Positions 1,923-49,589 of a stretch of 51,103 nucleotides of DNA are shown here, piece after piece; the stretch's first letter is position 1, and every line of letters begins with the position of its first letter. Under the pieces are notes generated by a model, which saw only the letters and a program-made list of their open reading frames with translations, had not been told where the DNA came from and ran no database searches. A program made the position numbers and the translations under genes. Source of the DNA: a virus; IMG/VR virus record IMGVR_UViG_3300045988_112499; one strand, written 5' to 3'.

Positions 1923-2321
1923 TTATGTAAATTGAAAACACTTGCCAACCTTGACAATAGTAGTGTCCATAGGGTACAAGTTAAGAAGCGGCAATCCTTT
2001 GGATTCACGATCTTTATTGATGATTGGAATACGTTGTTCGGCTTCCTGTATAGCACCAATTAGAACGTCTGATCCTGTAAAACAAGACCGTCTTTGCCCT
2101 TTCGGATTTCCGTCTTCTCCTTTTTCCCAAGACCCGTCCGGCAACCAAGTTGGGAAACATACTTGCATTTGCATACGCAAACCGCTTGAATTTTTCCCCG
2201 GAAAATTCGTCGGTTTGATAATTGTTTTTTCAATCAAGATGTGTTGTCCGAAAAGTTCGTCCATTTCGATTCCCTTTCCGACAACAACATCGGTTGTAAC
2301 CCCAAGATCACTAAATTTCAT
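1923..2321 (-). CDS. Hypothetical protein
   Basis: 132-aa ORF tightly packed between DGR-side genes and the holin; no recognisable motif. Confidence 0.5.
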   Translation of the reverse strand: MKFSDLGVTTDVVVGKGIEMDELFGQHILIEKTIIKPTNFPGKNSSGLRMQMQVCFPTWLPDGSWEKGEDGNPKGQRRSCFTGSDVLIGAIQEAEQRIPIINKDRESKGLPLLNLYPMDTTIVKVGKCFQFT

Positions 2322-2339
2322 TGTTGAAAGTATTAAAAG

Positions 2340-2723
2340 TTATTGAATAAGTTGACCCGAATAGTTTAGAAAGTCGGATTCAACCATTTGTTTAATTTCT
2401 TCTACTTTGTTCAAATAAGCAATATACTTGTCTTGCAAAGTTTTATCCTCTGAAATCCCAAGTTCAAAACGCTTGTTGTCATTTGCAAGGTCTATTTCTT
2501 GCGTCACGTCCCAAGTGTTTGAAATTACGGCCTTTTTTACGGTTTTTGATGTTGGTATCCCCCACACCTTTACGCTTTCACATTCCCAAGACTTCTTGAC
2601 GGGAACATTTTCTTGATCAACTTCTTGCGGCTGATCAACTTCTTTGAAATCGTAGTTGTAAAACCATGAACCATTGCCAAGATTTTGAAATACATTTGGC
2701 TTATCGTCTGAAACTGATTTCAT
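2340..2723 (-). CDS. Hypothetical acidic protein downstream of the DGR RT
   Basis: 127-aa ORF overlapping the RT 3' end by 23 nt; not helical-bundle-like. Confidence 0.5.
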   Translation of the reverse strand: MKSVSDDKPNVFQNLGNGSWFYNYDFKEVDQPQEVDQENVPVKKSWECESVKVWGIPTSKTVKKAVISNTWDVTQEIDLANDNKRFELGISEDKTLQDKYIAYLNKVEEIKQMVESDFLNYSGQLIQ

Positions 2724-3711
2724 ACGCTGAATTTTTTAAAAGTTTGTTTACAAGGTTTATTGAATCGCAATACTTACACCAACCCCACCAACTGCAAATC
2801 TGTTGTTTGAAGGATTCAAATTTTATGTCTGTCTTTTTGTTCAATTCTGCAACCCGGCGGCAAAATCTTTGCTTGATAGACTTTCGTAAAAGTGTGTGAG
2901 TATGAAAGAAGCGGTATCCTAAAAAGTCAATCCCCCGTGAATCGACCGGAAATACTTGAAAATTGTGCTTGATTTTCAATTTCAAATTGTCCCGAAGGTA
3001 AACCCGCATTTCACGCAATAAGGCGTGAAGTGATTCTTTGCTTGAAGATAGAATCACAATATCATCGGCATAGCGATAGAAATATCTTACTTGCTTGACT
3101 TCTTTGATCCAATGATCAAAATAAGCAAGATATAAATTGGCGAAATATTGGGATAAGTAATTCCCAATAGGTACACCGTCGGCCGAATCAATAATTTCGT
3201 CAAGTAACCAAAGCAAGCGTTTATCCTTTATTTTTCTGCGAATAACCTGTTTTAGTATATCGTGATCAATAGAAGGATAAAACTTGCGAACATCTATCTT
3301 TAGACAATAAATTGTGCCTTCCGGGTCTGTCTTTAAATCATATTTGACCCGTTTAGCGGCTGCATGTATTCCCCTATTCTTGATGCAAGAATAGGTGTCA
3401 TTTGTGAAGACTGAAACCCAAATCGGTTCAAGAACATTCATAATTGCATGATGCGTGATCCTATCCGGGAAATATGGAAGTCTAAAGATTTGCCGTTCTT
3501 TTGGTTCATAAATTGTGAAGACATCATACTGTGACGTCTTGTATGTTTGAGTTAAAAGCATTTCTTGAAGACGCAAAAGATTCTCGTCACGGTTTTTGTC
3601 GTGCCGTTGGACCCCGTAAGATCGAAGCTTTCTTCTGCGGGCTTTTTCATCGGCCAATCGCAAATTCTCAATGCTACAAATCTGATCATACAAATTTCCA
3701 AGTCTTTTCAT
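2701..3711 (-). CDS. DGR reverse transcriptase
   Basis: YADD catalytic motif (RYADDIVILS) and the DGR-type IGNYLSQYFANLYL motif; adjacent TR/VR pair. Confidence 0.95.
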   Translation of the reverse strand: MKRLGNLYDQICSIENLRLADEKARRRKLRSYGVQRHDKNRDENLLRLQEMLLTQTYKTSQYDVFTIYEPKERQIFRLPYFPDRITHHAIMNVLEPIWVSVFTNDTYSCIKNRGIHAAAKRVKYDLKTDPEGTIYCLKIDVRKFYPSIDHDILKQVIRRKIKDKRLLWLLDEIIDSADGVPIGNYLSQYFANLYLAYFDHWIKEVKQVRYFYRYADDIVILSSSKESLHALLREMRVYLRDNLKLKIKHNFQVFPVDSRGIDFLGYRFFHTHTLLRKSIKQRFCRRVAELNKKTDIKFESFKQQICSWWGWCKYCDSINLVNKLLKNSAYEISFRR

Positions 3712-3727
3712 TTATCTTCATATTATT

Positions 3728-3746
3728 GTATATCAGTGTGATATAC
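3728..3746. promoter_or_regulatory. Dispersed palindrome copy 1: G TATATCA GTG TGATATA C
   Basis: 16 nt upstream of the RT start codon, inside the TR-RT spacer. Confidence 0.8.
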
Positions 3747-3837
3747 GTTTGCTTATATAATGGGGGTCTTCGGGCTTTGATACCCTACCAACACCGTTTT
3801 ATAAAATTTATTTTTTGCCCTTGGTTTCCCAAGTCAT

Positions 3838-3856
3838 GCAAAACAAACTGTTTTGC
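3838..3856. other. Hairpin in the TR-RT spacer
   Basis: GCAAAAC (3838-3844) / GTTTTGC (3850-3856) with a 5-nt loop. Confidence 0.4.
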
Positions 3857-3890
3857 TTTTGTGGCAAGGTTTCCGTCGATGCAATATTTT

Positions 3891-4008
3891 TATAAGCATA
3901 GCTGAGAACCGATATTCGCATTCGTATTCGACGCCGTATTATTCGTATTCGAGTAGCTGACACCTGCATTCGCACCATTATTCGAAGAACCGCTGAACAA
4001 CACACCCC
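3891..4008 (-). repeat. DGR template repeat (TR)
   Basis: 118 bp aligning without gaps to VR1 (offset +193) and over 78 bp to VR2 (offset +37679); 30 adenines on the minus strand; nine AAT codons in the VR reading frame. Confidence 0.95.
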
Positions 4009-4065
4009 GACGACGGACAACCCTTTTATTTCAACTCAAAATTTCAAAATTCAAAAAACGATTCG

Positions 4066-4080
4066 GGGCGTTACACGCCC
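4066..4080 (-). promoter_or_regulatory. GC-rich hairpin immediately 3' of VR1
   Basis: GGGCG (4066-4070) / CGCCC (4076-4080) with a 5-nt loop, spanning the stop codon of the target gene. Confidence 0.5.
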
Positions 4081-5405
4081 GGTAAAAAGCAAAGCCGAGA
4101 ACCGACAGACGCAGCCGCATTCGACGCCGTATTAGCCGTATTCGAGCAGCCGACACCCGCATTCGCACCATAAGACGAAGAACCGCCGAACAACACACCC
4201 CTTTGAGCTTCACCGGAAGCCGGAATATTTGTATAGAAATAATCTGAAAAATATGTCGTCGATCCGGCCCCAACTGCAAGCGGCATGAATTCACCATATT
4301 CACCGATAATCATTTCCTTGATATAACCTTCTTTGCGTGGCAATACGCCCCGTAATTCATAGTTATTATAGTTTGTATCTTGGAAATATTGCGGGTCCTC
4401 ACAAGCGTAAAATTCAGATAATCCCCCGTCGGTTTCTGATTGGATACGGCATTTACAACCGTCAACCCATGACCAAATATGACCGAATGGATTTTCTATT
4501 CCACGATAAGAAGGAACACCAACGGTCAAGATCGTAGTGTCATAATCTTGCGGTAAGTTGTAATTGACAACTCCGGTTGCATTACCTAATGAATTGGTTA
4601 CACCGCAAGGAAGAAGCGGATAATAACCTGTAAAATTGCTCCATTTCGTACTGTTTACCGTAGTAACTCCCGCACCCAAGCCGCCTTGCTTGTATCCTTC
4701 CGAAGTTGGTTGCGCATTGAACGCTAATTGGCAATTAAAGTTTGCATACTCAACGGCACGCAACCAATACAACACACGTTGCACGAAGTATGTGTCGCAA
4801 TTCCAATTGACTGATCCACGATTTCGGGCGTACTTTCTGAAGTTGGTTAAACTGATTGCAGTTGCGGGACGTCCTAATTGCGTTTTGCTTAGTTCGTCCC
4901 AAGCCGTTTGATTTCCCCCGCCCCTGTAATCGGCTGAAGTGTTGACAACTGAAGACAATTTCAATGTCGAACGTTGAAGGGCGGCTTCATACGCTGAAAT
5001 ATACATTTTCGGGATGCGTCTAAATCCGGGCAAAGCGTATATTGACATCAAACAACGGCGTTTAGTTCCTTCCATTTCAAAGCGGACATAGTGTTCCGGT
5101 ATTTCGACCATGACTTGCCCGGTTGCCCCCGTCAGATCAGCCGCCGCACCGTTGTCACGTTTAGTCGAATCATTGGCATGAAGATAATAAACCACGTTTC
5201 CGGCATCATTCAAGATGCAACGGCGCATAAGTGATTGAATAGGCAATGAAACATGAAGTTCCGGTCTGCCTAAACGAGTACAAGCGGAATCGGCAACATT
5301 TGTGTCCCATTCGATCCCATAAAAGTAATTATAGGGGAATTTTGGTTCCGTTCCCCCGATTCCAATTAAGATTCCCATATCAATAGCCCCATTTAAGTTT
5401 GACAT
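4071..5405 (-). CDS. DGR target protein 1, tail-associated receptor-binding candidate with C-terminal C-type-lectin-like VR
   Basis: 444-aa ORF ending in VR1; located directly after the tail-fibre genes. Confidence 0.9.
   Translation of the reverse strand: MSNLNGAIDMGILIGIGGTEPKFPYNYFYGIEWDTNVADSACTRLGRPELHVSLPIQSLMRRCILNDAGNVVYYLHANDSTKRDNGAAADLTGATGQVMVEIPEHYVRFEMEGTKRRCLMSIYALPGFRRIPKMYISAYEAALQRSTLKLSSVVNTSADYRGGGNQTAWDELSKTQLGRPATAISLTNFRKYARNRGSVNWNCDTYFVQRVLYWLRAVEYANFNCQLAFNAQPTSEGYKQGGLGAGVTTVNSTKWSNFTGYYPLLPCGVTNSLGNATGVVNYNLPQDYDTTILTVGVPSYRGIENPFGHIWSWVDGCKCRIQSETDGGLSEFYACEDPQYFQDTNYNNYELRGVLPRKEGYIKEMIIGEYGEFMPLAVGAGSTTYFSDYFYTNIPASGEAQRGVLFGGSSSYGANAGVGCSNTANTASNAAASVGSRLCFLPGV
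4084..4201 (-). repeat. DGR variable repeat 1 (VR1)
   Basis: 19 mismatches to TR, every one at a plus-strand T (minus-strand A) of TR; encodes the C-terminal GVLFGGSSSYGANAGVGCSNTANTASNAAASVGSRLCF. Confidence 0.95.
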
Positions 5406-5652
5406 TTGACAATGAAGTTTGCTTCACTGCCTTTATAATTTCCGGGTTCCAACCCGGATAAAGCCTTGTTTCAATGAAGGTCCCGTCGTCCATTCCGGCG
5501 GGCGTAACTTCAAGATAGACGTCTTCATTTCCTTCATTCTTTAAAAGGAAGGCTTGACCGTCCGGCAATGAAAAGTTGCTATCTTGCAACCCTTCAATAT
5601 TGCCAAGCTTGGCAACTTGCGGACTTACCATTTCACCACTTCTTGTGTTCAT
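5380..5652 (-). CDS. Hypothetical protein upstream of the DGR target
   Basis: 90-aa ORF overlapping the target gene start by 26 nt. Confidence 0.5.
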   Translation of the reverse strand: MNTRSGEMVSPQVAKLGNIEGLQDSNFSLPDGQAFLLKNEGNEDVYLEVTPAGMDDGTFIETRLYPGWNPEIIKAVKQTSLSNVKLKWGY

Positions 5653-5685
5653 AAGTTGAAAATTTTAGTTCAAAAATAGGTTGTA

Positions 5686-5704
5686 TTATATCACTGTGAT
5701 ATAT
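5686..5704. promoter_or_regulatory. Dispersed palindrome copy 2: T TATATCA CTG TGATATA T
   Basis: 33 nt upstream of the ATG at 5652; followed on the minus strand by TATTTTTG. Confidence 0.8.
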
Positions 5705-6138: not shown

Positions 6139-9100
6139 TTAAGTACCATATCTTACTGTATAATAATGGCCATTGCAATACCTTAAAACCAAACTGTCGC
6201 CTTGTGCCATGTCAAGCCAACCATTCCCGCCGTTTATGCGTTCGGCGTTATTATCTACTAATACGCCGTCGTCACAACCGGAAAGTTTTATTCGATTGCT
6301 GTTTCCCAACCAACCAATTTGAATATAAAGCAAGAATGATATGTCCTTGCCCGATAATTCAGAGACGGTTCTATTCATATATGCCCGTCCGGGTAATCTT
6401 ACATTTCTATATGCGGCCCCAATTGAACCGAAGAAGAAGTTGTTCGTTATACCGATATATTCTTCAATGATGTCGGTATATGCTTCACCGTGATAAGTGT
6501 CGTCAAAATGTGCATTACCCCCAATTGAGAAAGAATTTCCGTCTACTTGCAAAGCCCTTTGGGTGTACCAAGATGAATTATTCCTTGGTCTAAATTTTGT
6601 ATATAAACCAATTCCACTATTATATGAACTTCCCGAATATTCAAAACGGCCAAGACCCATTAATCCACTTGATGCGGGGAACACGTTTGCGCCTATTCCG
6701 GCCCACAAATTGGTTTTTGAGAATTTTATAAAATCGGATAACAATGCAAGACCATTGTATTTGCCTTCCATTTCAGAAGATTCAGAAACACCGATTCTTC
6801 CTTGCCCGATTTCAAAACCGCCAATGCTGCCGGATATTGCCTTGATAATGCCTTCAATTGTTGCTTTTGATGCAATTATTGATCCGTCTTGTAAAACACG
6901 GAAAGGGGCCGTATTTCTATTCTCTTTTGAAGCCCCGGCCCAAAAACGAACCGAAGAAGCTTCCGTTCCTTCGCCTGTTATTCCTGCAAGGATAGAACCG
7001 CCCGATCCTGCAAGTTGTACCGTGCCGGAAGTGACAATACCCCCGTCAATGACTGTTTTTGTATTGTCATAATTCACGGCAATGACCCAATCGTTGATGC
7101 TATATGATTGTCCAACAACTTTTGCGGTTTGGCATCGCCGCAAATCGGCTCCATTTACCCACAAATCGCCAATGTCATACGGGGCGTATGGCGTTGAGAC
7201 GAAGACACGACGTTTGCCGTCGGCGGTGTCTTGTGCTTTACTTGCTGCTTCGTATGCGTCCAAGGCTGTTTGATCAACGCTCCTTTGCCAATAGTATAGA
7301 ACATTCGTTTTGGTTGTCCATTCTGAAGAATTATAACTTCCGGTTGTCCTTGTTGTGTTAGCTATTTTTATATACAAGTCTTGAATGAAGCAATCCCCGA
7401 TTGTATAAGTGTTTGGCGTATTGATAAAAAGGGTTACACCGTCGGCCAAATAACTAACAACCTTTGCAGAAACAAACAACAAGTTTTCGTCGTCCTTTTC
7501 ATTCCAATAGTAAGAAATTATAGGGTTTCCGTTGTTGTCATACTCAACTTTTTTGCTATAAATATATAGCTTCTTTGCGGCGGTATTATAATATAAATCA
7601 CTTACATGTGCTTCTTTCAATGTAGAAGTGTTCCAACTTGAAGCGGGTGCATTACTGATCGTTGGTGCGGTTCCTTTTTTCCAAAAATGAATCCCGTTTT
7701 TGCTAATGACATTTTTAAATTGAGAAACGTTTCCTTTCACATAGAAATACAATTTCTTATCCGTCGGGGTGTACCATGTGTCACCAACATGCTTCACTTG
7801 ACTTTCAACGGTTGTCCAAGTTGTTGCGGGGTCTGATTCTTGAAACCAAGATTCGATCTTTCCGTCAATTTGATTCGTGAAGTCTTCAACAGTATTGGCG
7901 AATACTCCGTTTATGAAGGCCGTCAAAGCGGCATCCGAAGTGTATTTTGATGCCTTTTCCCAATCGCTTGAAGTATATGAACCGGACAAACGATTCGTTT
8001 TACAACGCATAATATCCCCCGAAGCACCTTGGACCCATAGGTCCCCGACTTCATACGGCGGGATTGGTGTAGAAGTGAATATTCTTCTTTTTTCCCGTGC
8101 TAATGCAAGGGCATCATTGGCAAGGGCCAAGGCGTTTGCAACTTCTGAATCTTGAAGTTCTTTCCATTTATAAACCGTTCCTTCTTTTACCCAACGAAAA
8201 ACTTTTCCGGTTTCGGTATTATAAAACAAGTCCCCCAAATGGTTTTCTTTCAAGGTTGTCGTTGTCCATTCTTTGGCCGGAATATTGCTTGTCGTTGGAT
8301 CGTATTCATAAAAGAATTGTTCAATTTGCCCGTCAAGTTGTGCCCGCAAATCATTCAATATGCCCGGCAAAGTGTTGTCGATATAATTCTTTGCGTCAAG
8401 GGATTCTTGCCCTAATTCTTCAAGCGTTTTTTCTTGGCCGTTTGAATCAAACACGATCTTCCCGCCAATTTCCCCGGCGTCGAGATCAAAATATGTGCTT
8501 CCGTCGGGCGATTGAATACGTCCTGTTTTGATAAATCTTCCGTTGACGGTTGTAAAACCATAGGTCAAGGAAACGGACCGGACATGTAACATTGTATCTA
8601 CCGAATTAACAACTCCGATCCAAAAATGATAATTCATTGCATCTTCTTCAACGCCAATTTGTTGCGGTGTGAAAACTATTGTTCCGGTATTTCCTTGTTT
8701 CAAGACTTTCGCATAAATATAATAAGCTTGTGAATCAGACAAGAAGGTTGTGTCCCCGTCCGATAAGGTCCAAGAACGGGGCATTTCTTCAATAGCATAA
8801 TGCGTCAAAATACCGCCTTTTACCCGCATAAGGTTTTTATTTCCATTGAAATTTGGCTGAAATACGGTTCCAACCAATCCAAATTGCATTGATTTTGCGC
8901 CAACTGACAACATCAAAGTATCAACCGAATTGGGCTTGATCTTATCAGTGTAATAATCACCTTCGGGATCAAAGACCATATTTAAAACTTCTTGCGCTGA
9001 TAACCAATCACGACGGGCCTTTGCAGGGTCTTTCAAATTATTGATAGTCAATATTTTGTCAATGTCAATCAAATCCGATATAACACGGGTATATGTTGAC

Positions 9101-10536
9101 CTTTCAACCGAAACATCTGCAATTGTCAAAGTGTATTTGTATTCGTCGATCAAATCCCTTGTGAATGATTTGACACGGATAGATTTATCAACGTCTATGT
9201 CCGTATCAATCACCGGGATATAATCACCAACCCAAATTGCGTTCGATGTTGTACCAAGGCCCGCAATACTTTTTAAAAAGAATTCGTCAAGTGTCAATGA
9301 GTATTGCACCTTTGGTTGGCAATTCTGCTGAAGAAATTTTGTTCCGGCTTCTAACAACTTTTTTTCGGCTTCGTCAATGTATGATTGTGGCAAAGCAATG
9401 TCAATCAACACATATTCGTCACCTATTCCGAATTGAAATGCGGAAGATGTTTCGGAAGGGAAAGACATATCCCTGTTATCGGTTATTTTTTTTAGCGTGA
9501 AGGTATGCGTTGCGTGATCATAAGCATGAATTTCAAATTCATATCCGGCCAAATTCCCCGTATTGAAATGTACCTTTGCCGACACCCCGTTCAATAAGTA
9601 TTTTGTTGTTTTCCCGTCTGATTCAGTTTCATTCAAGTTGAACATTGTAGAATCGGAAAACTTTAAAACACTGTCCCCCAAGGCTGATATTGTTCCGGTG
9701 CGGTGTGGGTAAATATCATCAAAGTTCTTTGTGTTTTCCCAAATACCATATTGCGCAATTGCTTTGGCATCTTCAAGAAAACTTTGTGCCTTGGTTTTAT
9801 TGGGAAGACAAAGTTTTGTGCAACGGTATTTTGATGTTATATTTTTAGTTGATCCGTAGCATTTTAATCGGGTGACTATGTTTGAGGAAGACACCTTTTC
9901 CCTTGTCAATTCGTAGATTCCCAATCCTTTTCCATATTTGAAAGTGAAAGGGAAAGTCTTTCCTACATTGGTGATGTTTATTGTACATACACCGTTTGCC
10001 GATTGGATAATCTCAAATTCAAGCCCGTATTCGTCACAAACATTTTGAAGTACTGAAAGGCAATTGTCGGAATCTCCGAAAGTCAATGTCTTTGTGTCTG
10101 TGTCCGGACAAGAACCAAGAACCCATTTTCCGGGAAATATTCGGGATATATTGGCAATTAACACTTGCATGAAACGGCGTAAATCACCTGTCAATGAATC
10201 CCCTTGAACGTCAACACCTGTTGTGTCAATTGTGACATCATAAGAAGCACGGGCAAGGTCATATTGCACGCCTTCAAATTGCAAGTCATATTGAAAGTTA
10301 TATGCCGATTCTTTTTTGACTTTAGGCAACACATTCAACGTATATCTTCGGCCGAATATTTCAATCCTGTCACCAATTTCGTATGCTTGTGGGAAAGGAG
10401 ATTGAACCGTTATATCAACAGTGTCGGCCCCCAATAATTCGACCTTTTGTTTTGCGCTTGAAATTCGTGTTGTGGTTCCCCTGTTTTGAAGGGGAACCCG
10501 TGAACCGTCACGCCGAATAATTATAATTTGTTCCAT
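6139..10536 (-). CDS. Large tail fibre / host-specificity protein
   Basis: 1465 aa, downstream of the tape measure and distal tail genes; internal repeated modules (GDLWV...RC.T twice, W.T...H.GD.Y three times). Confidence 0.75.
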   Translation of the reverse strand: MEQIIIIRRDGSRVPLQNRGTTTRISSAKQKVELLGADTVDITVQSPFPQAYEIGDRIEIFGRRYTLNVLPKVKKESAYNFQYDLQFEGVQYDLARASYDVTIDTTGVDVQGDSLTGDLRRFMQVLIANISRIFPGKWVLGSCPDTDTKTLTFGDSDNCLSVLQNVCDEYGLEFEIIQSANGVCTINITNVGKTFPFTFKYGKGLGIYELTREKVSSSNIVTRLKCYGSTKNITSKYRCTKLCLPNKTKAQSFLEDAKAIAQYGIWENTKNFDDIYPHRTGTISALGDSVLKFSDSTMFNLNETESDGKTTKYLLNGVSAKVHFNTGNLAGYEFEIHAYDHATHTFTLKKITDNRDMSFPSETSSAFQFGIGDEYVLIDIALPQSYIDEAEKKLLEAGTKFLQQNCQPKVQYSLTLDEFFLKSIAGLGTTSNAIWVGDYIPVIDTDIDVDKSIRVKSFTRDLIDEYKYTLTIADVSVERSTYTRVISDLIDIDKILTINNLKDPAKARRDWLSAQEVLNMVFDPEGDYYTDKIKPNSVDTLMLSVGAKSMQFGLVGTVFQPNFNGNKNLMRVKGGILTHYAIEEMPRSWTLSDGDTTFLSDSQAYYIYAKVLKQGNTGTIVFTPQQIGVEEDAMNYHFWIGVVNSVDTMLHVRSVSLTYGFTTVNGRFIKTGRIQSPDGSTYFDLDAGEIGGKIVFDSNGQEKTLEELGQESLDAKNYIDNTLPGILNDLRAQLDGQIEQFFYEYDPTTSNIPAKEWTTTTLKENHLGDLFYNTETGKVFRWVKEGTVYKWKELQDSEVANALALANDALALAREKRRIFTSTPIPPYEVGDLWVQGASGDIMRCKTNRLSGSYTSSDWEKASKYTSDAALTAFINGVFANTVEDFTNQIDGKIESWFQESDPATTWTTVESQVKHVGDTWYTPTDKKLYFYVKGNVSQFKNVISKNGIHFWKKGTAPTISNAPASSWNTSTLKEAHVSDLYYNTAAKKLYIYSKKVEYDNNGNPIISYYWNEKDDENLLFVSAKVVSYLADGVTLFINTPNTYTIGDCFIQDLYIKIANTTRTTGSYNSSEWTTKTNVLYYWQRSVDQTALDAYEAASKAQDTADGKRRVFVSTPYAPYDIGDLWVNGADLRRCQTAKVVGQSYSINDWVIAVNYDNTKTVIDGGIVTSGTVQLAGSGGSILAGITGEGTEASSVRFWAGASKENRNTAPFRVLQDGSIIASKATIEGIIKAISGSIGGFEIGQGRIGVSESSEMEGKYNGLALLSDFIKFSKTNLWAGIGANVFPASSGLMGLGRFEYSGSSYNSGIGLYTKFRPRNNSSWYTQRALQVDGNSFSIGGNAHFDDTYHGEAYTDIIEEYIGITNNFFFGSIGAAYRNVRLPGRAYMNRTVSELSGKDISFLLYIQIGWLGNSNRIKLSGCDDGVLVDNNAERINGGNGWLDMAQGDSLVLRYCNGHYYTVRYGT

Positions 10537-11729
10537 ACTACAATTGCATTTGTTTCAAACTTTTCAATTTCGTCAATACACCCGGCTACAATGATGTAGT
10601 AATCACCGTTTGACTTGAATGTATGATTGACAACCAAGTCTTCGCCGTAAATGTCTGTCTGAACTTCACCGTCACCCCAATAGATGTCAACAAGCTTTGT
10701 TGTTGTGATTTTGATAGAGCAATTTTGCGTTGATTCTCCGACACGAATAAACTTTAGTACTTTTTTTACCGGGGACGGCTCCTTCAATTTCAAAGTGAAA
10801 GTTCCTATCATTAAACTATCATCCCAAGTCTTTTTGATTGCGATTGCATCTTCTGAATATACTTCATAGACAAGCGGTTTTGTTGGGTGAATATCAACCA
10901 TAAGGCGGTGTGTGCCCGCTTTGTCGAAGATTTGGAAAAAGCGGTTCACTTTACTTGCAAAGTCGCCTTTCCCTTCTACGGCTTTAATAAAGCAAGACAA
11001 GGTGATTTCCCGACTTTCGTAAAACTTGTGATTCAGATCAACGCATGTTCCGTGATAGTTGTCCCATGATACGGACATCGGGGATTTCATTTTTGGCCGA
11101 TCTGTCAACCCGTCGGAACCGGAAACATATACGCCGTATTCTTTCAGATCAACACCGTCAATGTAATATGTCAATTGTTTGACATTTGACATTTCTTCGA
11201 TCAAGTCTTCTTGGGAAAGGGCAATATTATAAAGCTTCATGTCGTCAACACAACCTTTCCCATATTCACCCCCGAAATAATCTTGATTCAATGAGACGCC
11301 TAACAATGTGCCGGAACGGTTTATTGTCTTCACAAGTGCGGTATTTACATAGAAATTGTATTGCGTCCCCCTTTTGGTCATAGCAACGGAAACCCAATTG
11401 CCGCATGATAATTCAATCGGGATTTCGGAATATTGATCAATGCCGTCAAAGGCAAGAAGCCAAATAACTTTTGAAGGGCTTCCCGCTTCAATCGACATTG
11501 GATTGACCCAACATAAGATTGAAAATTCGCCCGAAAGATTCAATACGTTTTTAGAAATCTTACATGTGTCTTTGCCGGAAAACTGAATTGCATTTCCAAT
11601 CTTACCGGAAACAAACTTTGCACCGGACACAATGCCGTCCGCACGATTGGCCGAATAGTCATAAGCGATCAACGAACCGTCCGATTCATCGAAAGGTAAA
11701 TTCAAAATAACATTCTTTGTATTTGCCAT
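10521..11729 (-). CDS. Tail protein with N-terminal LamG-like lectin domain (distal tail protein candidate)
   Basis: DDMKLYNIALSQEDL resembles the LamG C-terminal signature (D.vRiYnRALS..Ei); start set to the ATG at 11729 (the track start is TTG). Confidence 0.6.
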   Translation of the reverse strand: MANTKNVILNLPFDESDGSLIAYDYSANRADGIVSGAKFVSGKIGNAIQFSGKDTCKISKNVLNLSGEFSILCWVNPMSIEAGSPSKVIWLLAFDGIDQYSEIPIELSCGNWVSVAMTKRGTQYNFYVNTALVKTINRSGTLLGVSLNQDYFGGEYGKGCVDDMKLYNIALSQEDLIEEMSNVKQLTYYIDGVDLKEYGVYVSGSDGLTDRPKMKSPMSVSWDNYHGTCVDLNHKFYESREITLSCFIKAVEGKGDFASKVNRFFQIFDKAGTHRLMVDIHPTKPLVYEVYSEDAIAIKKTWDDSLMIGTFTLKLKEPSPVKKVLKFIRVGESTQNCSIKITTTKLVDIYWGDGEVQTDIYGEDLVVNHTFKSNGDYYIIVAGCIDEIEKFETNAIVVWNKL

Positions 11730-11730
11730 T

Positions 11731-12240
11731 TTAGTAAGTTTTTTTGTGTTTTTCAATAACTTTGATCACGGCCCTTTCTGAAGATTCTGTCTTCAAAGTA
11801 CCGCCGTAATGGTTTACGCATACTTTTGAATCGGCCGAAGCGATTACATGAAGTTTAGAATCGTCAAACATGTCGATCATGACAAATGAATTTCCCTTTG
11901 CAATAATGATCAAGTCTGATTCATGTTTCACAAAGATTTCAGATACACCAAAGTTGTTGATTTCGACCCGGCCAATACAACGGCCAAGGGCGACAACACG
12001 GCGATCATTGGCCGTGTTTAATGATTCATCAAGGTGCACCCCGTATTCTTCCATTCTGCCAATGAAATTTTCACGGATATAGTCATTCGTAGGGAAATCA
12101 TTTGAAAGACAAAAGTCAATTCCACGAACATACATTTCAAGTAATCGGTCTTTATCGTCAAGCGTTTTCATTTGGTCAAACCATTCTTGACAAATCCCTT
12201 TCTTTTTTGCTATCAAAGCAAGTTCTTTTCCTATTTTCAT
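11731..12240 (-). CDS. Hypothetical tail-module protein
   Basis: 169-aa ORF between the tape measure and the LamG tail protein. Confidence 0.5.
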   Translation of the reverse strand: MKIGKELALIAKKKGICQEWFDQMKTLDDKDRLLEMYVRGIDFCLSNDFPTNDYIRENFIGRMEEYGVHLDESLNTANDRRVVALGRCIGRVEINNFGVSEIFVKHESDLIIIAKGNSFVMIDMFDDSKLHVIASADSKVCVNHYGGTLKTESSERAVIKVIEKHKKTY

Positions 12241-12266: not shown

Positions 12267-15200
12267 TTAAGATAAACCCATTGCACGCAAAGAATCTGAT
12301 TGCCTGTCACCTTTTAGTAAGTCAACGATTTGTGTCAATTTGGAAAGGTGAACGTTGTACGACGTATTTAAAGCAACCCTATTTAGTGCGATCAATTGTT
12401 GGCGAAGAATGTTGATTGATTCCATTTGATTGATTCGCATTGCGTTCATTTGTCCGGCGACAATGCTTGCGGTTTCTTCCGAAACGCCTTGAATACCACC
12501 TTGCAACGTCGTGTCCGGTTCCGATATTTCGTCTTTTAGGTCTTTGAAAAGGTCTTCGTACACTCCAAGGGCTTGCGTGAAGTTTTTCCCAATGGAAGAA
12601 ATTTGATTTTTGAAGCGTGCTTGTTCTTCCGGGGTCAAACCGTCAAAAACAAACGTATCACCGTTCCAATACCCCATTGACTTTTCAAGACCGTCAAGCG
12701 CACCTTGAAGTTGCTTTTCAAGAAAGTTTTTCTTCAACTGATTCAAAACGGCTTGTTTCATTATTGAATCGGCCGTTTCTCCGAAAGCCGTTGCAGCGTC
12801 TTCACCTTTTCCGAAGGCTTCAACGATAGCATCGCCCAATTGATCCGCAAAGTCTTTTGCATTGCTTTGAAGAATGTCTTCCGATATGGATTTCAACATG
12901 TCTTCAATGTCACGCCCTAATTGATCATATTGTTCTTGATATTGACGCACCTTGTCACCGTCTGTCTTCTTCTTGTCTTCTTCAAGGCGTTTCATTTCAA
13001 GCAAGTGTTCCCGTTGGGCTTCCATGTTATGAATTGCGGCTTTCTGATTTTTATATACTTCACCGCCAAGGGCTTTGTCAATGGCCCAAGATAGTTGATT
13101 GTAGGCGTTCGTCAAATCTTTCACGGCGTCACCATGTTTGTTGATCGACTTATCAATGTGCTTGTCGTGAATACGATTCAACGTTGTCAATAGCTTGAAC
13201 GGCATTGAAATTGTGTCTTGGATCGCTCCCATGACATTACCACTTTTCAGATTTTCCCAACCGGACATTGCCGTTTCATTAACGGCGTCAATACAGTCGG
13301 CCCAATCTTGTAGATTGTCGGACGCATCAGAATGACCGATTGAATCTTGATAATCGGCAATAGTTCGCAATGTGCCGGAAACGGCTTGCAAGGTTTGATA
13401 TACCGCCGTGATGATTGCATCAACCATTGATAAGGCCCCGGCCGCACCCCCGGCGGCCCCTTCCATTGCTCCTTGTGCTTCTCCCGCATTTCCTGCAACT
13501 TCCCCGGACGTCCCGGCAATATCGGCCATGTCACCTTTAGCCCCGGAAAATATGGTCTTGAAACTATCAAGCTTTGTTTGAAAGTCACCTTCACCAAAGA
13601 TCATGTTCATAAAGCCGCCCCCCTTGGAATTTCCGAATATAGATTCCATTCCCCGGCCTTGATAAGCGGAGTCGGCTTGTTTGTTAATTTTGTCAATCAG
13701 TTCCTTATACTGATCGTATGTCAATTTGCCGGAATTATAGGCTTCTTGCATCATGCTCAACAATGCTTTTCGTGTAGCTTCAAAGGTATTGATTGACAAT
13801 GTTTGTATTTTACCAAAGAAATCCTTGTATTGCTTTGTTTCTTGAAGGATTTCCATGTCTCGTTGGCCTTCTAATTGCTTGGCGGCGGTTTCATTGCCTT
13901 TGATCCGTTCGGCGGCAATAAGTTTGTTGTAATACGTCGTTATTTCAAGGCGACGGCCTTCAAATGATCCAAGGGTGTTGATCGCTTCTTTATTCAAATC
14001 TTCTAATTCATCAAAACTTCGTATCCCGGCTTCGTGCATCTTGGATAACAAGGACATTGCGCTTTCAATTTGCTTCTTTTCTTCGGCGTTTTGTGTTTCC
14101 GTAGCCCTACGGCGTAATAAGGTCATTTGATCTTGATATTGAACTTCTGCTGACAATTTACGATCCAAATATTCAGTATAAGAACGAAGCATTTCGGTTG
14201 TTTCTTCCTGTGCCTGTTTGTTGACATCTTCTTCCGCTTTATCCAAAATATCTTTTTGAGCGTTATCAAGATCGGACCCGTCGCCGGATAATTCCTTTCG
14301 TTTTTGGGCGATAATATCAAGCATTTGAACGATAGATGTAGCGGAATTCATTTGCTTCTTTAGGGCTTCATCGAAACTTTGAAGAACCGTTTTTTTTGAT
14401 TCCTCGGCAATCTGATCATTCAGCGTCTTCAGCTTTTTATTCTGATCGGCGGTCCTTGTATCAAGCGACATTAATTGATCCCTTTGTTTTTTGAGATAAT
14501 CAAGATATGTTTTCCCTTCTTTCAACAAAGAAGCAAATTCAGATTCGGCCGCCTTCTTAACGCCCGGATCATTGGAGTTGACCCACTTTAAATATTGTTG
14601 ATAAAGCTTTTTGCGTTTTTCAAGGCTTTCTTTGTAGGGGTCCTTTTCTTTCTTGTTGCTCGTTTGGTCAATTTTATTGAGAAGGGATTCTTGCGTTTTG
14701 ATTTGTTTCAATAACGCTTTGCGGTCTGTATCATTAGCGGCGTCTCTGTATTTTTCTTTTAGGCGGGAAATACTTTGTTCAAGGGCCGCAATTGATCCTT
14801 CAACAATGTTATTAGTTGAAACGCCAATTTCTTTCAATATTGCTTTTTCTTTGGCCGTGAATTCTGCTGACTTTTTAAATAGGTCAAGACCTTCTTTTTC
14901 AAGCTTTTCTTTGGCTTCTTTCAATTTAGTATAATCTTCATTGTCAACATAGTAAACTTCTGTTGTCATTCCGTATGATCCTTTACCGGGCGAACCTTGA
15001 ACCATTTTATTGCGGGTTCTTGCTACCTTTTCCGGTGTGTTTTCCATTTCAAGTTGCTTCAATAAAGCTTCTTTGTATTTGGTTGCAGCAATTTCAGCCG
15101 AAGCCATTGCCTTGGCTTTCTGAACCATTGCCAAGATAAATTTATTCTTTTGTCCTTCACTGCTTAGTATGGTTTCGGCTTCTTTCACATCATTGATCTT

Positions 15201-16487
15201 GACGCCAAGTTCTTTGAAGCGATCAGCATTTTCAATAATGAATTTTTCTTTGTCTTTTAGGTTGTCACCTAATCGGGACCAAGCAACCGATAATTCTTCG
15301 ATAGCTGCAATAGGTTTGGCCGCACAATCGACAACGGCTTTATTGAATTCTTCAGTTGCTTTTTGGGCTTCTTTGGATTTGCTTATATATTTGGAAACCA
15401 ATACAATAATTGCCGTGATAGCTGCCGATAAACCAAATGTTAAGGTTGCTAACAATGCTTGTGCGGCAACCGTAGAAACCCCAAGGGCTGCCGCCAATCC
15501 GCTTGTTGCTGTTGCAAGCAATGTTTTGGCTTTGGCGACAACAACAAGGGTGAAGGCCGAATCTTTGTTCAACATCTGTTCGATTTGCTGAAGGCCGATT
15601 GTTATTGCCATAAGTGATTGAACCTTCAACATTATCTTTTGAAGGTTTTCATTTTCTCCGGCAAATAATCCGATTGCACCTTGGGCGGCTGAAAAAGCCC
15701 CGGTTATACCTGTCAAACCGGAAATAATGCCTTGCATACCTTTTTGATCATGTGCAAGAATATTGGCTTGCGCTGTTGCGTCTGCCATTGCATCCGTTAA
15801 TGTTGCAAGCTCATTCCGTGCGTTTTCATACTCGATTGTATTACGTTTTCCGGCGGCTTCCATTTCAATAATGGTTTCCTTTAATTCACGAATACGGGTA
15901 CGGAATGAAACATGTGCTTTTTCGGCGGTTTGCACTTGGCTTTCAAGGATTTTTAAAGCTTCAGTTTCGGCGGCTAATTCTGCTTTTACTTCGGCCGCCT
16001 GTTGTCTCATTTCCGATTGGGCCTTACCGGGGGCCAACTTTCCAATTTCAGCATCAAGGTTTTTGACTTGATTTTCAAGTTCTGCAATCACTTCTTTTTG
16101 AATCCGAATATTTTCATTCGTGACGTCAAAGGTGTCATAAGTTCTTGTCACTTGCGATTCAAGTACTTTCAAAGCTTCTTTTTCGGCTTCAAGTTCTTGT
16201 TTGGCCGATTTTGCTTGTGCTATAATCTTTGCCTGTCCTTCCCCCGGACCGATCTTGTCAATTTGTTGTTCAAGGTTGACAACTTCTTTTTCAAGTTGGT
16301 CGATAACATCTTTTTGAATCTTTATGTTTTCGGCTGTTACTTCAAACGCATCGTCAATTTTTTCACTTTCCGCAACGGTTGCGGAAGAAAAACCTTTCAC
16401 ACGTCTTTCGGCTTCGCTTATTGCTCCGATCAACTGTTCATTGTTTAGTAATGCTTCAAATTCAAGCGATCCACCTTCTATGTTCAT
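12267..16487 (-). CDS. Tape measure protein
   Basis: 1406 aa, long coiled-coil regions, central hydrophobic segments (LTFGLSAAITAIIVLVSKY); position after the tail chaperone. Confidence 0.85.
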   Translation of the reverse strand: MNIEGGSLEFEALLNNEQLIGAISEAERRVKGFSSATVAESEKIDDAFEVTAENIKIQKDVIDQLEKEVVNLEQQIDKIGPGEGQAKIIAQAKSAKQELEAEKEALKVLESQVTRTYDTFDVTNENIRIQKEVIAELENQVKNLDAEIGKLAPGKAQSEMRQQAAEVKAELAAETEALKILESQVQTAEKAHVSFRTRIRELKETIIEMEAAGKRNTIEYENARNELATLTDAMADATAQANILAHDQKGMQGIISGLTGITGAFSAAQGAIGLFAGENENLQKIMLKVQSLMAITIGLQQIEQMLNKDSAFTLVVVAKAKTLLATATSGLAAALGVSTVAAQALLATLTFGLSAAITAIIVLVSKYISKSKEAQKATEEFNKAVVDCAAKPIAAIEELSVAWSRLGDNLKDKEKFIIENADRFKELGVKINDVKEAETILSSEGQKNKFILAMVQKAKAMASAEIAATKYKEALLKQLEMENTPEKVARTRNKMVQGSPGKGSYGMTTEVYYVDNEDYTKLKEAKEKLEKEGLDLFKKSAEFTAKEKAILKEIGVSTNNIVEGSIAALEQSISRLKEKYRDAANDTDRKALLKQIKTQESLLNKIDQTSNKKEKDPYKESLEKRKKLYQQYLKWVNSNDPGVKKAAESEFASLLKEGKTYLDYLKKQRDQLMSLDTRTADQNKKLKTLNDQIAEESKKTVLQSFDEALKKQMNSATSIVQMLDIIAQKRKELSGDGSDLDNAQKDILDKAEEDVNKQAQEETTEMLRSYTEYLDRKLSAEVQYQDQMTLLRRRATETQNAEEKKQIESAMSLLSKMHEAGIRSFDELEDLNKEAINTLGSFEGRRLEITTYYNKLIAAERIKGNETAAKQLEGQRDMEILQETKQYKDFFGKIQTLSINTFEATRKALLSMMQEAYNSGKLTYDQYKELIDKINKQADSAYQGRGMESIFGNSKGGGFMNMIFGEGDFQTKLDSFKTIFSGAKGDMADIAGTSGEVAGNAGEAQGAMEGAAGGAAGALSMVDAIITAVYQTLQAVSGTLRTIADYQDSIGHSDASDNLQDWADCIDAVNETAMSGWENLKSGNVMGAIQDTISMPFKLLTTLNRIHDKHIDKSINKHGDAVKDLTNAYNQLSWAIDKALGGEVYKNQKAAIHNMEAQREHLLEMKRLEEDKKKTDGDKVRQYQEQYDQLGRDIEDMLKSISEDILQSNAKDFADQLGDAIVEAFGKGEDAATAFGETADSIMKQAVLNQLKKNFLEKQLQGALDGLEKSMGYWNGDTFVFDGLTPEEQARFKNQISSIGKNFTQALGVYEDLFKDLKDEISEPDTTLQGGIQGVSEETASIVAGQMNAMRINQMESINILRQQLIALNRVALNTSYNVHLSKLTQIVDLLKGDRQSDSLRAMGLS

Positions 16488-23545: not shown

Positions 23546-23571
23546 AAAGGGGGCTTTATTTGGCCCCCTTT
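23546..23571. terminator. Bidirectional terminator between convergent genes
   Basis: AAAGGGGGC (23546-23554) / GCCCCCTTT (23563-23571) with an 8-nt loop; the right arm overlaps the last codons of the MuF gene. Confidence 0.65.
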
Positions 23572-25829
23572 AAATTATAATGTTTCAAGTAATAATCAAA
23601 TGAATCTTCACCGCTATAACAGAACTTTATGATTCTCTTAATGTCTGTTTTCGTGAACTTACGTCCTGTATCCGGGTTTATACGATTTTTGAATCCTTCG
23701 GATACTCCGTCGATCAATCCGGTCATTTGATCCGTGTATCTGCCTTCAAACAAATGCTTCTTCACAATCGACAACACCTTGCTTCGATCCAATCCCAAGA
23801 CATCAATCAACCTGTCATAATTGCAAACCATATCATTATAAGCCGTTGAACTTCTGTTTGTGGTGAATTCTGTGTGTGGAGTGTCTTTTGCGCCTAATGC
23901 TTTGTAAAATTCCGGCAATGTCTTTCGGGCTACAAACTCATTTGCCAACTCCATGAAACGGCGTTCAAGTGTAGACAAGAACATGTTTCCCTGCTTGTTA
24001 CGGTTGTGCGTGATTTCATGCCAAAGCGTTGCCATTGCATCGGCTTCATTGAAGGTTATATCAATACCGTTTTTGACTTTGTTCATTGCGGAAACACACA
24101 ATTCCAATCGGTCTTGTGCTAAACTGATTTTTCCTTTCATATCGGTTGAACCGTTGTTGTTTCGGTTTTTGTCAACTGCCAAAGTATCGAAGCCATGTTC
24201 AAACCAACCTTCCTTGGTTCCAACCGTCTTGATTTCGTCCCTCACATGTTCCGGCGTCTGTATCTTTGCACCTTTACTTTGATTCAATACAGCGTTTGCA
24301 ATGTCACTTTCCAAAGATTGAATTGAAGTGTTGATTGAAGTCGTAATGTTTGGGTTTCCGATTATTGCCGGATTGTTTTGCAATGATTTGGACCATGACT
24401 TCAATTGCGCCCCATTAACCCCCAATTTTTCGGCCTTACCGATAAGCGATTGAATCTTACCCAATAGATTGTAATAGTTAGTTTCATGCTTGGTGATCTG
24501 ATCTTCAAGGGCCTTTATAATTCGGCGTAATTGGACCGGATCATTATTCGGACGAACAACATTCAACATTTCAGTCGAAACGCCCCACATAAGGCAACGG
24601 GGCTTCAATGCTGCGATTTCGGCATCTATTGCGGCCAATTCTGCAACTTTCGGATCGACTTTGGGTTTTTCGATTTTAGGTTTGATCAAATTCAACCCAC
24701 CGGAAATTCGCCCGCCTTTGAAATTATCTTTGATAAAGTAGGGGATCGAAGACCAACCTTCGGCGGCTTCTTCGTGTTCTTTGATCCATTGCTTGAACTT
24801 GTCGGGAACCTCGGAAACAAGGTTGCGTGACGCATACTTTTTATATTCCGTTCCTTTCAATGCCGCCTTCATTTCATCAAGTTCTTGATTGTCGAATTCG
24901 TCCGGGTCTTGAAGAATAGGGACCATTAAACAACGGCATTGCGGATGCCAACCTTTGAAGACGAAACTTTTTGGGTATCGTCCGGCCAAGGTGTCGCAAA
25001 TGTCCACAAATGGAACCTTCTTTCCCGTTTTTGGATCGGTTGTTGTGTGATTGTTGGAAAGTCGTATTTCAAAGCCAACAACGAAGTCAAGATTCGCCCA
25101 CCGAAGCCGTTCCGATTCTCTGTAAGCCATGTTTATTTCGGATCGGGTCAACCGCATTGCATTTTTGTAAGAGGACCGATAAACGCCTTGGCCGGGATGA
25201 AATGCGGCGGCGGCCTTAGATAAATGAAGTTGCCCCCTTTTATCACGTACCCGCCGGAACAAACGATCCGGGTCAATAAGGCTTCCCCGCAAGTCTTTCG
25301 ACAACTGTTGTGCGGATCGGCCTTCACCGATTCCGACATCAATTCCAAATTCCATTGTTTTTTTGAATTGCCCGGCGTATTTCCAAACCCGCTTGGATAG
25401 ATCAAGGCCGTTGACCTTTCGTTTCTGAAATGCGTCAAGGGCGTCAAGGTTGCGATCTTGCATCTTGGACAACATGCGTTTCCCAACCTTTGACGTGTTC
25501 ATAATCGACTGAAGGAATTCGTCGTTCTTCTTACATGCGTACAACCATTCATTCCGGGAACCTTTTTCAATTACCGCTTGCATATTTGAAGCAAGGCCAT
25601 TGATGATGTTTTGGGCCGTTGCTGAAGTTGAAGGATAATCGGCAAAAGAAAAAGGCTTGTCCGGGTCTATATTGGTACGCATGGCAAGTCGGGCGAATTC
25701 GGCAATAGCTTCATTATAAAGCTTGTCGATCACTGCAACATAAGCTTCCGTCTTTTGATAATGTGAAGCGTCCCAACCTTGCACGGAAAAGCGTTTATTT
25801 GGGCCGTCTTGCTTCTTTGCCCGTGTCAT
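23556..25829 (-). CDS. Head morphogenesis protein (SPP1 gp7 / Mu F family) with long C-terminal extension carrying HExxH
   Basis: GWHPQCRCLMVPI is typical of the MuF domain; C-terminal LWHEITHN (24006-24020) with Glu residues 14, 19 and 23 aa downstream. Confidence 0.75.
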   Translation of the reverse strand: MTRAKKQDGPNKRFSVQGWDASHYQKTEAYVAVIDKLYNEAIAEFARLAMRTNIDPDKPFSFADYPSTSATAQNIINGLASNMQAVIEKGSRNEWLYACKKNDEFLQSIMNTSKVGKRMLSKMQDRNLDALDAFQKRKVNGLDLSKRVWKYAGQFKKTMEFGIDVGIGEGRSAQQLSKDLRGSLIDPDRLFRRVRDKRGQLHLSKAAAAFHPGQGVYRSSYKNAMRLTRSEINMAYRESERLRWANLDFVVGFEIRLSNNHTTTDPKTGKKVPFVDICDTLAGRYPKSFVFKGWHPQCRCLMVPILQDPDEFDNQELDEMKAALKGTEYKKYASRNLVSEVPDKFKQWIKEHEEAAEGWSSIPYFIKDNFKGGRISGGLNLIKPKIEKPKVDPKVAELAAIDAEIAALKPRCLMWGVSTEMLNVVRPNNDPVQLRRIIKALEDQITKHETNYYNLLGKIQSLIGKAEKLGVNGAQLKSWSKSLQNNPAIIGNPNITTSINTSIQSLESDIANAVLNQSKGAKIQTPEHVRDEIKTVGTKEGWFEHGFDTLAVDKNRNNNGSTDMKGKISLAQDRLELCVSAMNKVKNGIDITFNEADAMATLWHEITHNRNKQGNMFLSTLERRFMELANEFVARKTLPEFYKALGAKDTPHTEFTTNRSSTAYNDMVCNYDRLIDVLGLDRSKVLSIVKKHLFEGRYTDQMTGLIDGVSEGFKNRINPDTGRKFTKTDIKRIIKFCYSGEDSFDYYLKHYNLKGAK

Positions 25830-41493: not shown

Positions 41494-41982
41494 TTAGGCG
41501 TTCAACAATAAAGAATCATTAAAAAGGTCGGTGAATGTCTGGCCGAAGTAGATTGCGAGTTCTCGATTTTTTAAGCAAAGCCGAGAACCGACAGACGCAG
41601 CCGCATGCGACGCCGTAGCATTCGTACTCGAGCAGCCGACACCCGCAGGGTTGGACATGTCGAACCAAGGATAATACTTGTATTCGTCGGAATCTTGCCA
41701 ATTGGGTTTCCAACCTTCGTTCAATGCTTCGGCAATGACGATCAACTTATAATTGGCAATGATTGCCTTTTGGTGTTTACGGGGCAAGCCTTTCACTTCG
41801 GGAACATTTGTTGAAATACCCAAAACTTGACAAGCGTCTTCAAATGATTTCACCCGGTCGGTGATGTTGTCGTATAATGCGACTTGTTTTCCGAATAGAT
41901 CGGATAAAACTTGTTTGCCTTCTTTTCCGGCATTGCGGAAAGCAACTAAAAGCGAATCTTGTTTAATTTGTAAAGTTCTCAT
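41494..41982 (-). CDS. DGR target protein 2 (small, remote)
   Basis: Contains VR2 in frame (PAGVGCSSTNATASHAAASVGSRLCL); ATG at 41982 (the track start is TTG). Confidence 0.8.
   Translation of the reverse strand: MRTLQIKQDSLLVAFRNAGKEGKQVLSDLFGKQVALYDNITDRVKSFEDACQVLGISTNVPEVKGLPRKHQKAIIANYKLIVIAEALNEGWKPNWQDSDEYKYYPWFDMSNPAGVGCSSTNATASHAAASVGSRLCLKNRELAIYFGQTFTDLFNDSLLLNA
41572..41649 (-). repeat. DGR variable repeat 2 (VR2)
   Basis: 78-bp ungapped match to TR 3893-3970 with 17 mismatches, all at TR plus-strand T (minus-strand A) positions. Confidence 0.9.
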
Positions 41983-41984
41983 TT

Positions 41985-49170: not shown

Positions 49171-49589
49171 ATCATTCCTTCCCTTACCATTTTCTTATAG
49201 GATGCAATAAGGCGGGTTATTGCTTTATTTGTTAGTTTATCACGACCACCGATTCCCAAGAATTCAACATCGAATCTTTCGGAAGCGGCGGTTTTATTTT
49301 TCGCCTGCTTTATATTCAAATATTTGGATTTTGACTTTCCTGTATCTTTCCAATCCATATCAACATTATGAAGTAATTGGAATATAAATCTCAATGCTTG
49401 CAAGGCGACTTTTCCCCCGGCTTCATTACCATGATTGTTTTTCACTTTCATGACTAATTTGAGAAGGACAAGAATCATTTGTTCAATTCCCAAATATCCT
49501 TCACCTTCAACCTTTTCAGATTCGTCAATAATGTTTCCTAACTGATATTGACAACGAAAATAATGTCTTTTAGAATTCTTTGTTTTCAT
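49167..49589 (-). CDS. Hypothetical protein co-transcribed with the integrase
   Basis: 140-aa ORF overlapping the integrase 3' end by 20 nt. Confidence 0.45.
   Translation of the reverse strand: MKTKNSKRHYFRCQYQLGNIIDESEKVEGEGYLGIEQMILVLLKLVMKVKNNHGNEAGGKVALQALRFIFQLLHNVDMDWKDTGKSKSKYLNIKQAKNKTAASERFDVEFLGIGGRDKLTNKAITRLIASYKKMVREGMI

Follow-up and report, generated by a model that had tools for sequence, protein, structure and literature searches.

A probably active diversity-generating retroelement with two target genes and no accessory gene in the genome of a temperate Bacteroidales phage

Introduction

The IMG/VR virus record IMGVR_UViG_3300045988_112499, a stretch of 51,103 nucleotides that was analysed as a whole and is called the window below, contains a reverse transcriptase (RT) gene close to two similar repeats, one of which forms the end of a gene placed among tail genes. 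The question raised by this locus is whether it is a diversity-generating retroelement (DGR), in which an RT copies a template repeat (TR) into a variable repeat (VR) with errors at adenines, and, if so, whether the element still works in this phage and how many genes it diversifies. An initial annotation, made from the letters alone, had read the locus as a DGR with a single VR. From the sequences and comparisons presented below, we consider it very probable that the locus is an active DGR with the order target-TR-spacer-RT, that it has no accessory gene, that one more target lies at a distance of about 12 kb on the circular genome, and that it is carried by a temperate, siphovirus-like phage of Bacteroides (Bacteroides uniformis type).

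The template repeat and the first variable repeat

The TR (positions 3891-4008, minus strand) is non-coding, while VR1 (4084-4201, minus strand) consists of an invariant 3' part (4084-4105) resembling an initiation of mutagenic homing (IMH) site and a diversified part (4106-4175). The two repeats had been described in the initial annotation as aligning without gaps and differing only at adenines. Re-alignment at an offset of 193 bears this out: no gap was needed, and the 118 bp contain 19 mismatches, each at a plus-strand T of TR and none at a non-adenine position. Since a plus-strand T of TR is an A on the coding strand, the TR/VR mismatches are adenine-specific. The plus strand of TR comprises 30 T, 34 A, 33 C and 21 G, so that the transcribed strand has 30 adenines, and the hypergeometric probability that all 19 mismatches land on T is 1.3e-14. 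Translated from the minus strand in the VR frame, TR reads GVLFSGSSNNGANAGVSYSNTNNTASNTNANIGSQLCL followed by a stop, has no start codon, and contains nine Asn codons, each of them AAT, as had been noted before. The end of VR1 is 10 nt from the stop of the open reading frame (ORF) 4071-5405 on the minus strand. Another ORF, at 3808-4020, overlaps TR; it matched no family and was treated as spurious.

Seven of the 19 VR1 mismatches are fixed TR/VR differences and not sites that vary today. Four of them (3891, 3893, 3899 and 3903) are found in the 3' IMH zone, and the other three (3958, 3965 and 3994) are T-to-C differences fixed across all close relatives. Because the changes at 3958 and 3994 turn Ser (AGC) into Gly, selection is plausible at these two positions. 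Position 3965 is the third base of an Ala codon, where the change from GCA to GCG is synonymous. The G (plus-strand C) is present at this site, which is 4158 in VR1 and 41644 in a second repeat described below (VR2), in 61 of 63 VR1 copies and in every VR2 copy seen, whereas the flanking adenine columns vary freely. Each of the fixed differences is the same as its 3' neighbour. Primer slippage was considered as their source and was rejected, as it does not fit the substitution spectra at the variable AAT columns.

The reverse transcriptase

The RT gene (2701-3711, minus strand) encodes 336 aa and matches RVT_1 of Pfam (7e-20), phrog_1423 (1.6e-131) and chain 8ub7_A of the PDB. Its ORF is intact. 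The YADD motif and IGNYLSQYFANLYL, on which the assignment to the DGR type had been founded, were both found, and the DGR-type motif [I/L]GxxxSQ is present as IGNYLSQ. The best match among solved structures is 8ub7_A (E 8.6e-54, residues 2-322), with retron and group II intron RTs at about 1e-19. The chain is labelled only 'Reverse transcriptase', and we take it to be the DGR RT (bRT) of the Bordetella phage BPP-1. On these sequence matches the enzyme is assigned to the DGR type.

Two ORFs on the minus strand were inspected next to the RT gene in connection with the accessory protein Avd. The 127-aa ORF at 2340-2723, downstream of RT, was rejected as an Avd: it is acidic by inspection, gave no significant match in Pfam or NCBIfam, and belongs to phrog_11557 (unknown function). 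The ORF at 1923-2321, between RT and the endolysin region, gave only a weak match to DUF5681 and is unlike Avd.

A second variable repeat

The window was scanned with TR, any base being permitted at its T positions, and a further copy was obtained at 41573-41647. This repeat, VR2 (about 41570-41649, minus strand), is homologous to TR 3891-3970 and has 17 mismatches to it, every one at a T of TR (P 5.5e-12). It is part of target gene 2 (41494-41988, minus strand), which encodes a small protein of 164 aa assigned to phrog_11581 (unknown function; 3.3e-42) with a conserved tail of 27 aa after VR2; the start is probably the ATG at 41982, as in the homologues, giving 162 aa. VR1 and VR2 of the window have 11 substitutions in common. 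A common complementary DNA (cDNA) or a recent duplication was rejected as their origin: four are fixed in every VR, and seven vary elsewhere. The account of the DGR in the initial annotation thus stands as far as it went, but the second target, the absence of Avd and the fixed IMH differences were not part of it.

Variation among relatives

A 27-nt TR/VR 3' anchor, AAGCANAGCNGAGAACCGANANNCGCA, was used as a search pattern for related cassettes; it was present in more than 118 stretches of IMG/VR and in 48 from genomes. The initial annotation had predicted that variation in related genomes would be confined to the adenine columns of TR, and this is nearly completely what was observed. A relative 99.7% identical to the window (L006) differs from it by 20 substitutions over 5.5 kb, of which 13 fall in the 118-bp VR1, all in TR-T columns (Fisher P 7e-18). 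For another, 99.3% identical (L004), seven of 39 substitutions are in VR1, again all in TR-T columns (Fisher P 1.5e-5). The 75-nt core of TR itself has 0-1 differences in L001, L004 and L006.

We also gathered 10 VR1 haplotypes by means of the 44-nt 3' flank only, so that the sample is unconditioned on VR content. All 10 are distinct, and 23 of the 24 variable columns within the repeat are TR-T columns. The metagenome scan anchored on the VR1 3' flank gave 6 loci, which suffices for the haplotype test but not for a frequency spectrum. At the protein level, the 90% cluster of target 1 has 1934 members; in 16 members that are 96-98% identical, variation occurs almost only at residues 411, 412, 415, 420, 422-426, 429-431, 433 and 434, which correspond to the codons AAT, TAC, ACG or ATC in TR. 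Further afield, 785 mismatches at TR-T and 18 elsewhere were counted in the first 46 TR/VR1 pairs, which come from related IMG/VR phages, and the same adenine-specific pattern recurs column by column in 63 TR/VR pairs of related Bacteroidales phages.

VR2 behaves in the same manner. Two genomes that are 97-98% identical (L003 and L005) have 13 VR2 differences each, all in TR-T columns. The best 120 listed matches of target 2, 94-96% identical, are all distinct, and in the 121 sequences obtained with the window copy included, high entropy is found only in residues 119-133, at TR-adenine codons. At the population level, therefore, variation is seen at exactly the codons that contain TR adenines. 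Taken together, the RT type, the TR/VR pair, the adenine-only mismatches and the variation among relatives all agree with the DGR reading as it was originally put forward.

One collected locus, L069 (IMGVR_UViG_3300000304_000103), has three copies of the anchor: one belongs to TR, one to VR, and the third to an additional VR 3' end in tandem, which is flanked downstream by the same sequence. The copies are 210 bp apart, and the extra one encodes a 56-aa ORF only.

The repeat ends and the spacer RNA

The 3' end of TR (...TCGGTTCTCAGCTATGCTT; 3891-3912, minus strand) is IMH*-like and uniform across the collected TR copies: 75 of 75 end in ...CAGCTATGCTT, while all 152 VR copies end in ...CGGCTTTGCTT. 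The columns 3899 and 3903 are constant within the TR class and within the VR class, and the first variable column is 3913. This constancy in each class marks 3899 and 3903 as fixed differences of the IMH/IMH* type and not as products of current mutagenesis. Directly 3' of VR1, the ViennaRNA fold gave a GC-rich hairpin, GGGCGT/ACGCCC (4066-4080, minus strand), after which the coding strand has a run of T. It may be a DGR target-recognition hairpin, an intrinsic terminator of target gene 1, or both; short GC hairpins are present at the same place in other VR1 loci too.

The spacer (Sp) between TR and RT (3712-3892, minus strand; 180 nt) is a structured non-coding RNA. Forty related, non-identical and well aligned spacers were analysed with RNAalifold, which gave six helices with 28 pairs, 14 of them with compensatory changes. 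The proportion of paired cells is 97.9%, compared with 31-56% when the partners are slid by 1-3 columns, and none of 500 shuffled controls attained the observed values on any measure. The multi-helix fold of the spacer RNA is thus conserved and supported by covariation. Its helices are H2 (3867-3863/3819-3815), H3 (3854-3851/3843-3840), H4 (3833-3829/3824-3820), H5 (3795-3790/3768-3763) and H6 (3785-3783/3774-3772), together with H1, whose 3' strand is at 3755-3750. A scan of the whole window with Rfam, spacer included, matched no family.

In helix H1 the TR 3' end UGCUUA (3898-3893) faces the Sp segment UAAGCA (3755-3750), with five invariant pairs and one that covaries (G-C to A-U, in 3 sequences). 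The data hint at a pairing between the TR 3' end and the spacer, which, by analogy with BPP-1, may serve as a template:primer duplex.

Target gene 1

Target gene 1 (4071-5405, minus strand) encodes a protein of 444 aa that belongs to phrog_5302 'tail protein' (2.5e-130) and has VR1 as its C-terminus. As annotated before, it is a neighbour of tail genes, being downstream of the tape measure gene and the large tail genes. Its true start is probably the ATG at 5378, giving 435 aa, since the homologues begin at the second Met and are 435 aa long. Its identity to tail proteins of crAss-like phages (cr111_1, cr55_1 and cr50_1), Bacteroides phage Versailles and Porphyromonas phages is 31-45%.

The AlphaFold model of target 1 has a mean predicted local distance difference test (pLDDT) score of 75, with the VR segment below 50. 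It matches the 'tail fiber protein' of cr55_1 (TMq 0.82, E 9e-42) as well as many 'tail collar fiber' proteins. A BFVD search with the model gave CotH-fusion proteins and a viral protein whose annotation is Treponema denticola variable protein (TvpA; E 1e-7). A C-type lectin fold is a likely candidate for target 1. The position of the gene, its phrog_5302 membership and the fold matches support the view that target 1 is probably a receptor-binding tail protein. Pfam and NCBIfam searches with both targets and the flanking small ORFs gave nothing over threshold.

Proposed mechanism

Minus-strand transcription would run through TR (from 4008 to 3891) and the 180-nt spacer, which then folds so that UAAGCA (3755-3750) could pair with TR UGCUUA (3898-3893). 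By analogy with BPP-1, priming may take place at 3899, which fits the non-transfer of 3899 and 3903. The RT would copy TR from about 3899 towards 4008, misincorporating opposite adenines, as the adenine-specific pattern suggests. The cDNA would then replace the homologous stretch in VR1 or VR2, with marker transfer beginning 5' of the invariant block TCGGTTCTC (3904-3912). The VR 3' end (CGGCTTTGCTT, in place of CAGCTATGCTT in TR) would never be overwritten and so may provide directionality. The predicted outcome in target 1 is 14 hypervariable C-terminal codons (in TR 9 Asn, 1 Tyr, 3 Thr and 1 Ile), or about 4e13 possible peptides, and in target 2 it is 11 variable codons, or about 1e10 possible peptides. 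The presumed effect at both targets is retargeted binding.

Alternative explanations

Several points weigh against the reading of the locus as an active DGR with this mechanism. The evidence for activity in this genome is comparative throughout. Neither random A-mutagenesis nor selection at the protein level accounts for the near-fixed G at 3965. Helix H1 has a single covarying pair. Foldseek placed Mtd (1yu4) at the top of the PDB matches of the target 1 model at a non-significant level (E 0.049, TM 0.16-0.18), and sequence and profile searches of the PDB with both targets were empty. Finally, no Avd (23S rRNA IVP-type) or HRDC was found among 48 small ORFs or the ORFs flanking the cassette. 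As the bRT of BPP-1 needs Avd for its activity, the mechanism must differ in that respect. In a published survey, avd was found in 74% of DGRs, and about 26-29% had no accessory gene, with 29% in Architecture A (PMC5758913). Since the accessory gene is not in all DGRs, its absence does not decide whether the element is one.

Some points would suit a fossil DGR that worked in ancestors but is shut down or defective in this genome, so that the TR/VR differences are historical: this genome is represented by a single sequence, Avd is not present, and all relatives have seven of the 19 mismatches as fixed differences. We regard this as improbable, because the RT ORF is intact with its catalytic YADD, and because relatives that are 99.3-99.7% identical have the same TR and yet VRs that all differ from one another. 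Moreover, the 10 VR1 haplotypes and the 121 VR2 variants are all distinct in a near-clonal population, which points to a turnover faster than background mutation.

Still less probable is a real DGR with VR1 as its sole functional target, in which VR2 would be a passenger copy derived from a partial duplication of the VR1 3' end. VR2 has only 78 nt in common with TR, its 11 substitutions shared with VR1 of the window are identical, and the hairpin downstream of it is weak, all of which a passenger would explain. A passenger would not be expected to differ at 13 positions in each of L003 and L005 and in TR-A columns only, or to concentrate its variation in TR-A codons across 121 protein variants. 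In addition, roughly 50 of 75 related loci keep a VR2-type gene between the genes for the MBL-fold hydrolase and p142; the encoded proteins are 30-45% identical to the window copy, and the repeat always has the VR-type IMH.

Least probable of all is an ordinary duplication that diverged by point mutation or phage recombination beside an RT from a group II intron, retron or defence system: the sub-threshold matches of the RT to NCBIfam models of group II intron, Drt3a, Drt2 and retron RTs, which would favour it, are far below the curated cut-offs, the RT matches BPP-1 bRT better than it matches retron and group II RTs by about 34 orders of magnitude, mismatches at only one base of one copy are not a product of random divergence, and Rfam found no intron or retron RNA family in the whole window.

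Target gene 2

With the active two-target DGR as the preferred reading, the nature of target 2 was considered. The gene stands in the block SbcC-RecT-MBL-[target]-p142-p248-DnaD, and a profile search of the protein collection gave more than 7,900 homologues. No signal peptide was detectable in the protein, and its structure model is poor (pLDDT 62) and without meaningful matches. We offer tentatively, as a suggestion more doubtful than not, that target 2 (phrog_11581) could be a non-virion, intracellular protein of early recombination or replication that is diversified by the DGR, and that a lineage of Bacteroidales temperate phages of about 50 kb could thus evolve a receptor-binding protein and an intracellular binder with one accessory-free DGR. 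If this were true, host defence and competing phages are examples of what the intracellular binder could be directed against.

Comparison with known systems

The DGR of BPP-1 (mtd-avd-TR-brt) resembles the one described here in its RT, which is homologous over the full length, in the adenine-specific transfer from TR to VR, in the VR at the C-terminus of a tail protein, in the fixed 3' differences of the IMH/IMH* type, in the GC hairpin after VR, and in a structured spacer RNA with a segment that pairs with the TR 3' end. In BPP-1 a duplex forms between the TR 3' end and Sp 47-56, and the cDNA is primed by Sp A56 at the base immediately 5' of it (bioRxiv 10.1101/2023.10.23.563531), whereas in the window the candidate primer strand comes about 140 nt after TR, at the spacer's far 3' end. 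Unlike BPP-1, the window phage has no Avd and has a second target, its target 1 has no detectable sequence similarity to Mtd, and nothing corresponding to the avd:Sp 'cPRT stop' duplex was identified in the window.

A phage DGR with two targets, one structural and one non-structural, has been reported in Quimbyvirus (Benler et al. 2021, PMC8008677), and two-target DGRs of gut phages are also discussed in PMC10743442. Quimbyvirus ('Quimbyviridae') is likewise a Bacteroidales gut phage with one DGR, two VRs and adenine-restricted variation among near-identical genomes; one of its VR proteins follows the tail fibre genes, and the other is distal and non-structural by position. It differs in genome size (about 75 kb, compared with 51 kb), in its frameshifted RT, which is a single ORF in the window, and in the surroundings of the second target, which are methyltransferase, nuclease and tRNA ligase genes in Quimbyvirus and the SbcC-RecT-MBL-hydrolase/replication module here. 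The DGRs of crAss-like phages and of Porphyromonas and Bacteroides phages with phrog_5302 are similar in that their tail proteins are 31-45% identical to target 1, and the RT DNA of the crAss-like phage cr52_1 is 76% identical over 261 bp; the backbones differ, the crAss-like genomes being about 100 kb, in contrast to a temperate phage of 51 kb with an integrase.

The window DGR falls in Architecture A (Wu et al. 2018, PMC5758913), which has the order target-TR-RT without avd or HRDC, is phage-associated and has a non-adjacent target within 50 kb in a prophage; there is no substantive difference. Phage-associated DGRs often have non-adjacent targets inside the same prophage (Wu et al. 2018, PMC5758913), and prophage DGRs are abundant in Bacteroides (bioRxiv 10.1101/2024.11.15.621889). 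Published precedent exists for every feature, including accessory-free DGRs and second, non-structural phage targets, and the cassette leaves the current understanding of DGRs unchanged. What it provides is a clean example of a comparatively validated gut-phage DGR, for which the host genus is defined, the anatomy is complete and natural haplotypes are abundant. The lineage is a natural Avd-free system with a covariation-supported spacer RNA that can be compared with the BPP-1 ribonucleoprotein, and the 27-nt anchor retrieves hundreds of related cassettes and could be used as a probe for the lineage. The second target represents an uncharacterised hypervariable protein family conserved in a replication/recombination module.

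The phage genome and its host

Bases 1-89 are repeated exactly at 51015-51103, which indicates a circular or terminally redundant genome with a unit of 51,014 bp. No tRNAs were found in the window. The phage context of the DGR is complete, and the genes listed here are all on the minus strand. They include the integrase (49570-50880), the tape measure protein (12267-16487), two large tail proteins (10521-11756 and 6139-10536), the endolysin (860-1438), and structural genes for the terminase, portal, head morphogenesis protein and major head protein. The recombination/replication module comprises an SbcC-like ATPase, RecT, an MBL-fold hydrolase, target 2, a membrane protein, an HU-like protein and a DnaD-like initiator.

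One member of the target 1 cluster is a Bacteroides uniformis protein from a 152-kb contig. The anchor was also found in genomes of Prevotella, Bacteroides pyogenes, Muribaculaceae, Alistipes and Parabacteroides, on contigs up to 2.67 Mb. Contigs of this length are what integrated prophages would give, which suggests a temperate phage of Bacteroidales. When positions 1-25000 and 2300-5700 of the window were compared by megablast with 50,697 phage records, a single match was obtained, the 261 bp of RT in cr52_1, and so there is no described close relative. The cassette apparently belongs to a large, undescribed lineage of temperate Bacteroidales phages.

The 757-aa head-morphogenesis or minor head protein (23556-25829, minus strand) also matches a Bxa-type ADP-ribosyltransferase family (phrog_16625, 2e-85). 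The non-structural small ORFs of the window include two with radical-SAM domains, DUF4406, DUF5131, SSB and a LuxR-type HTH protein.

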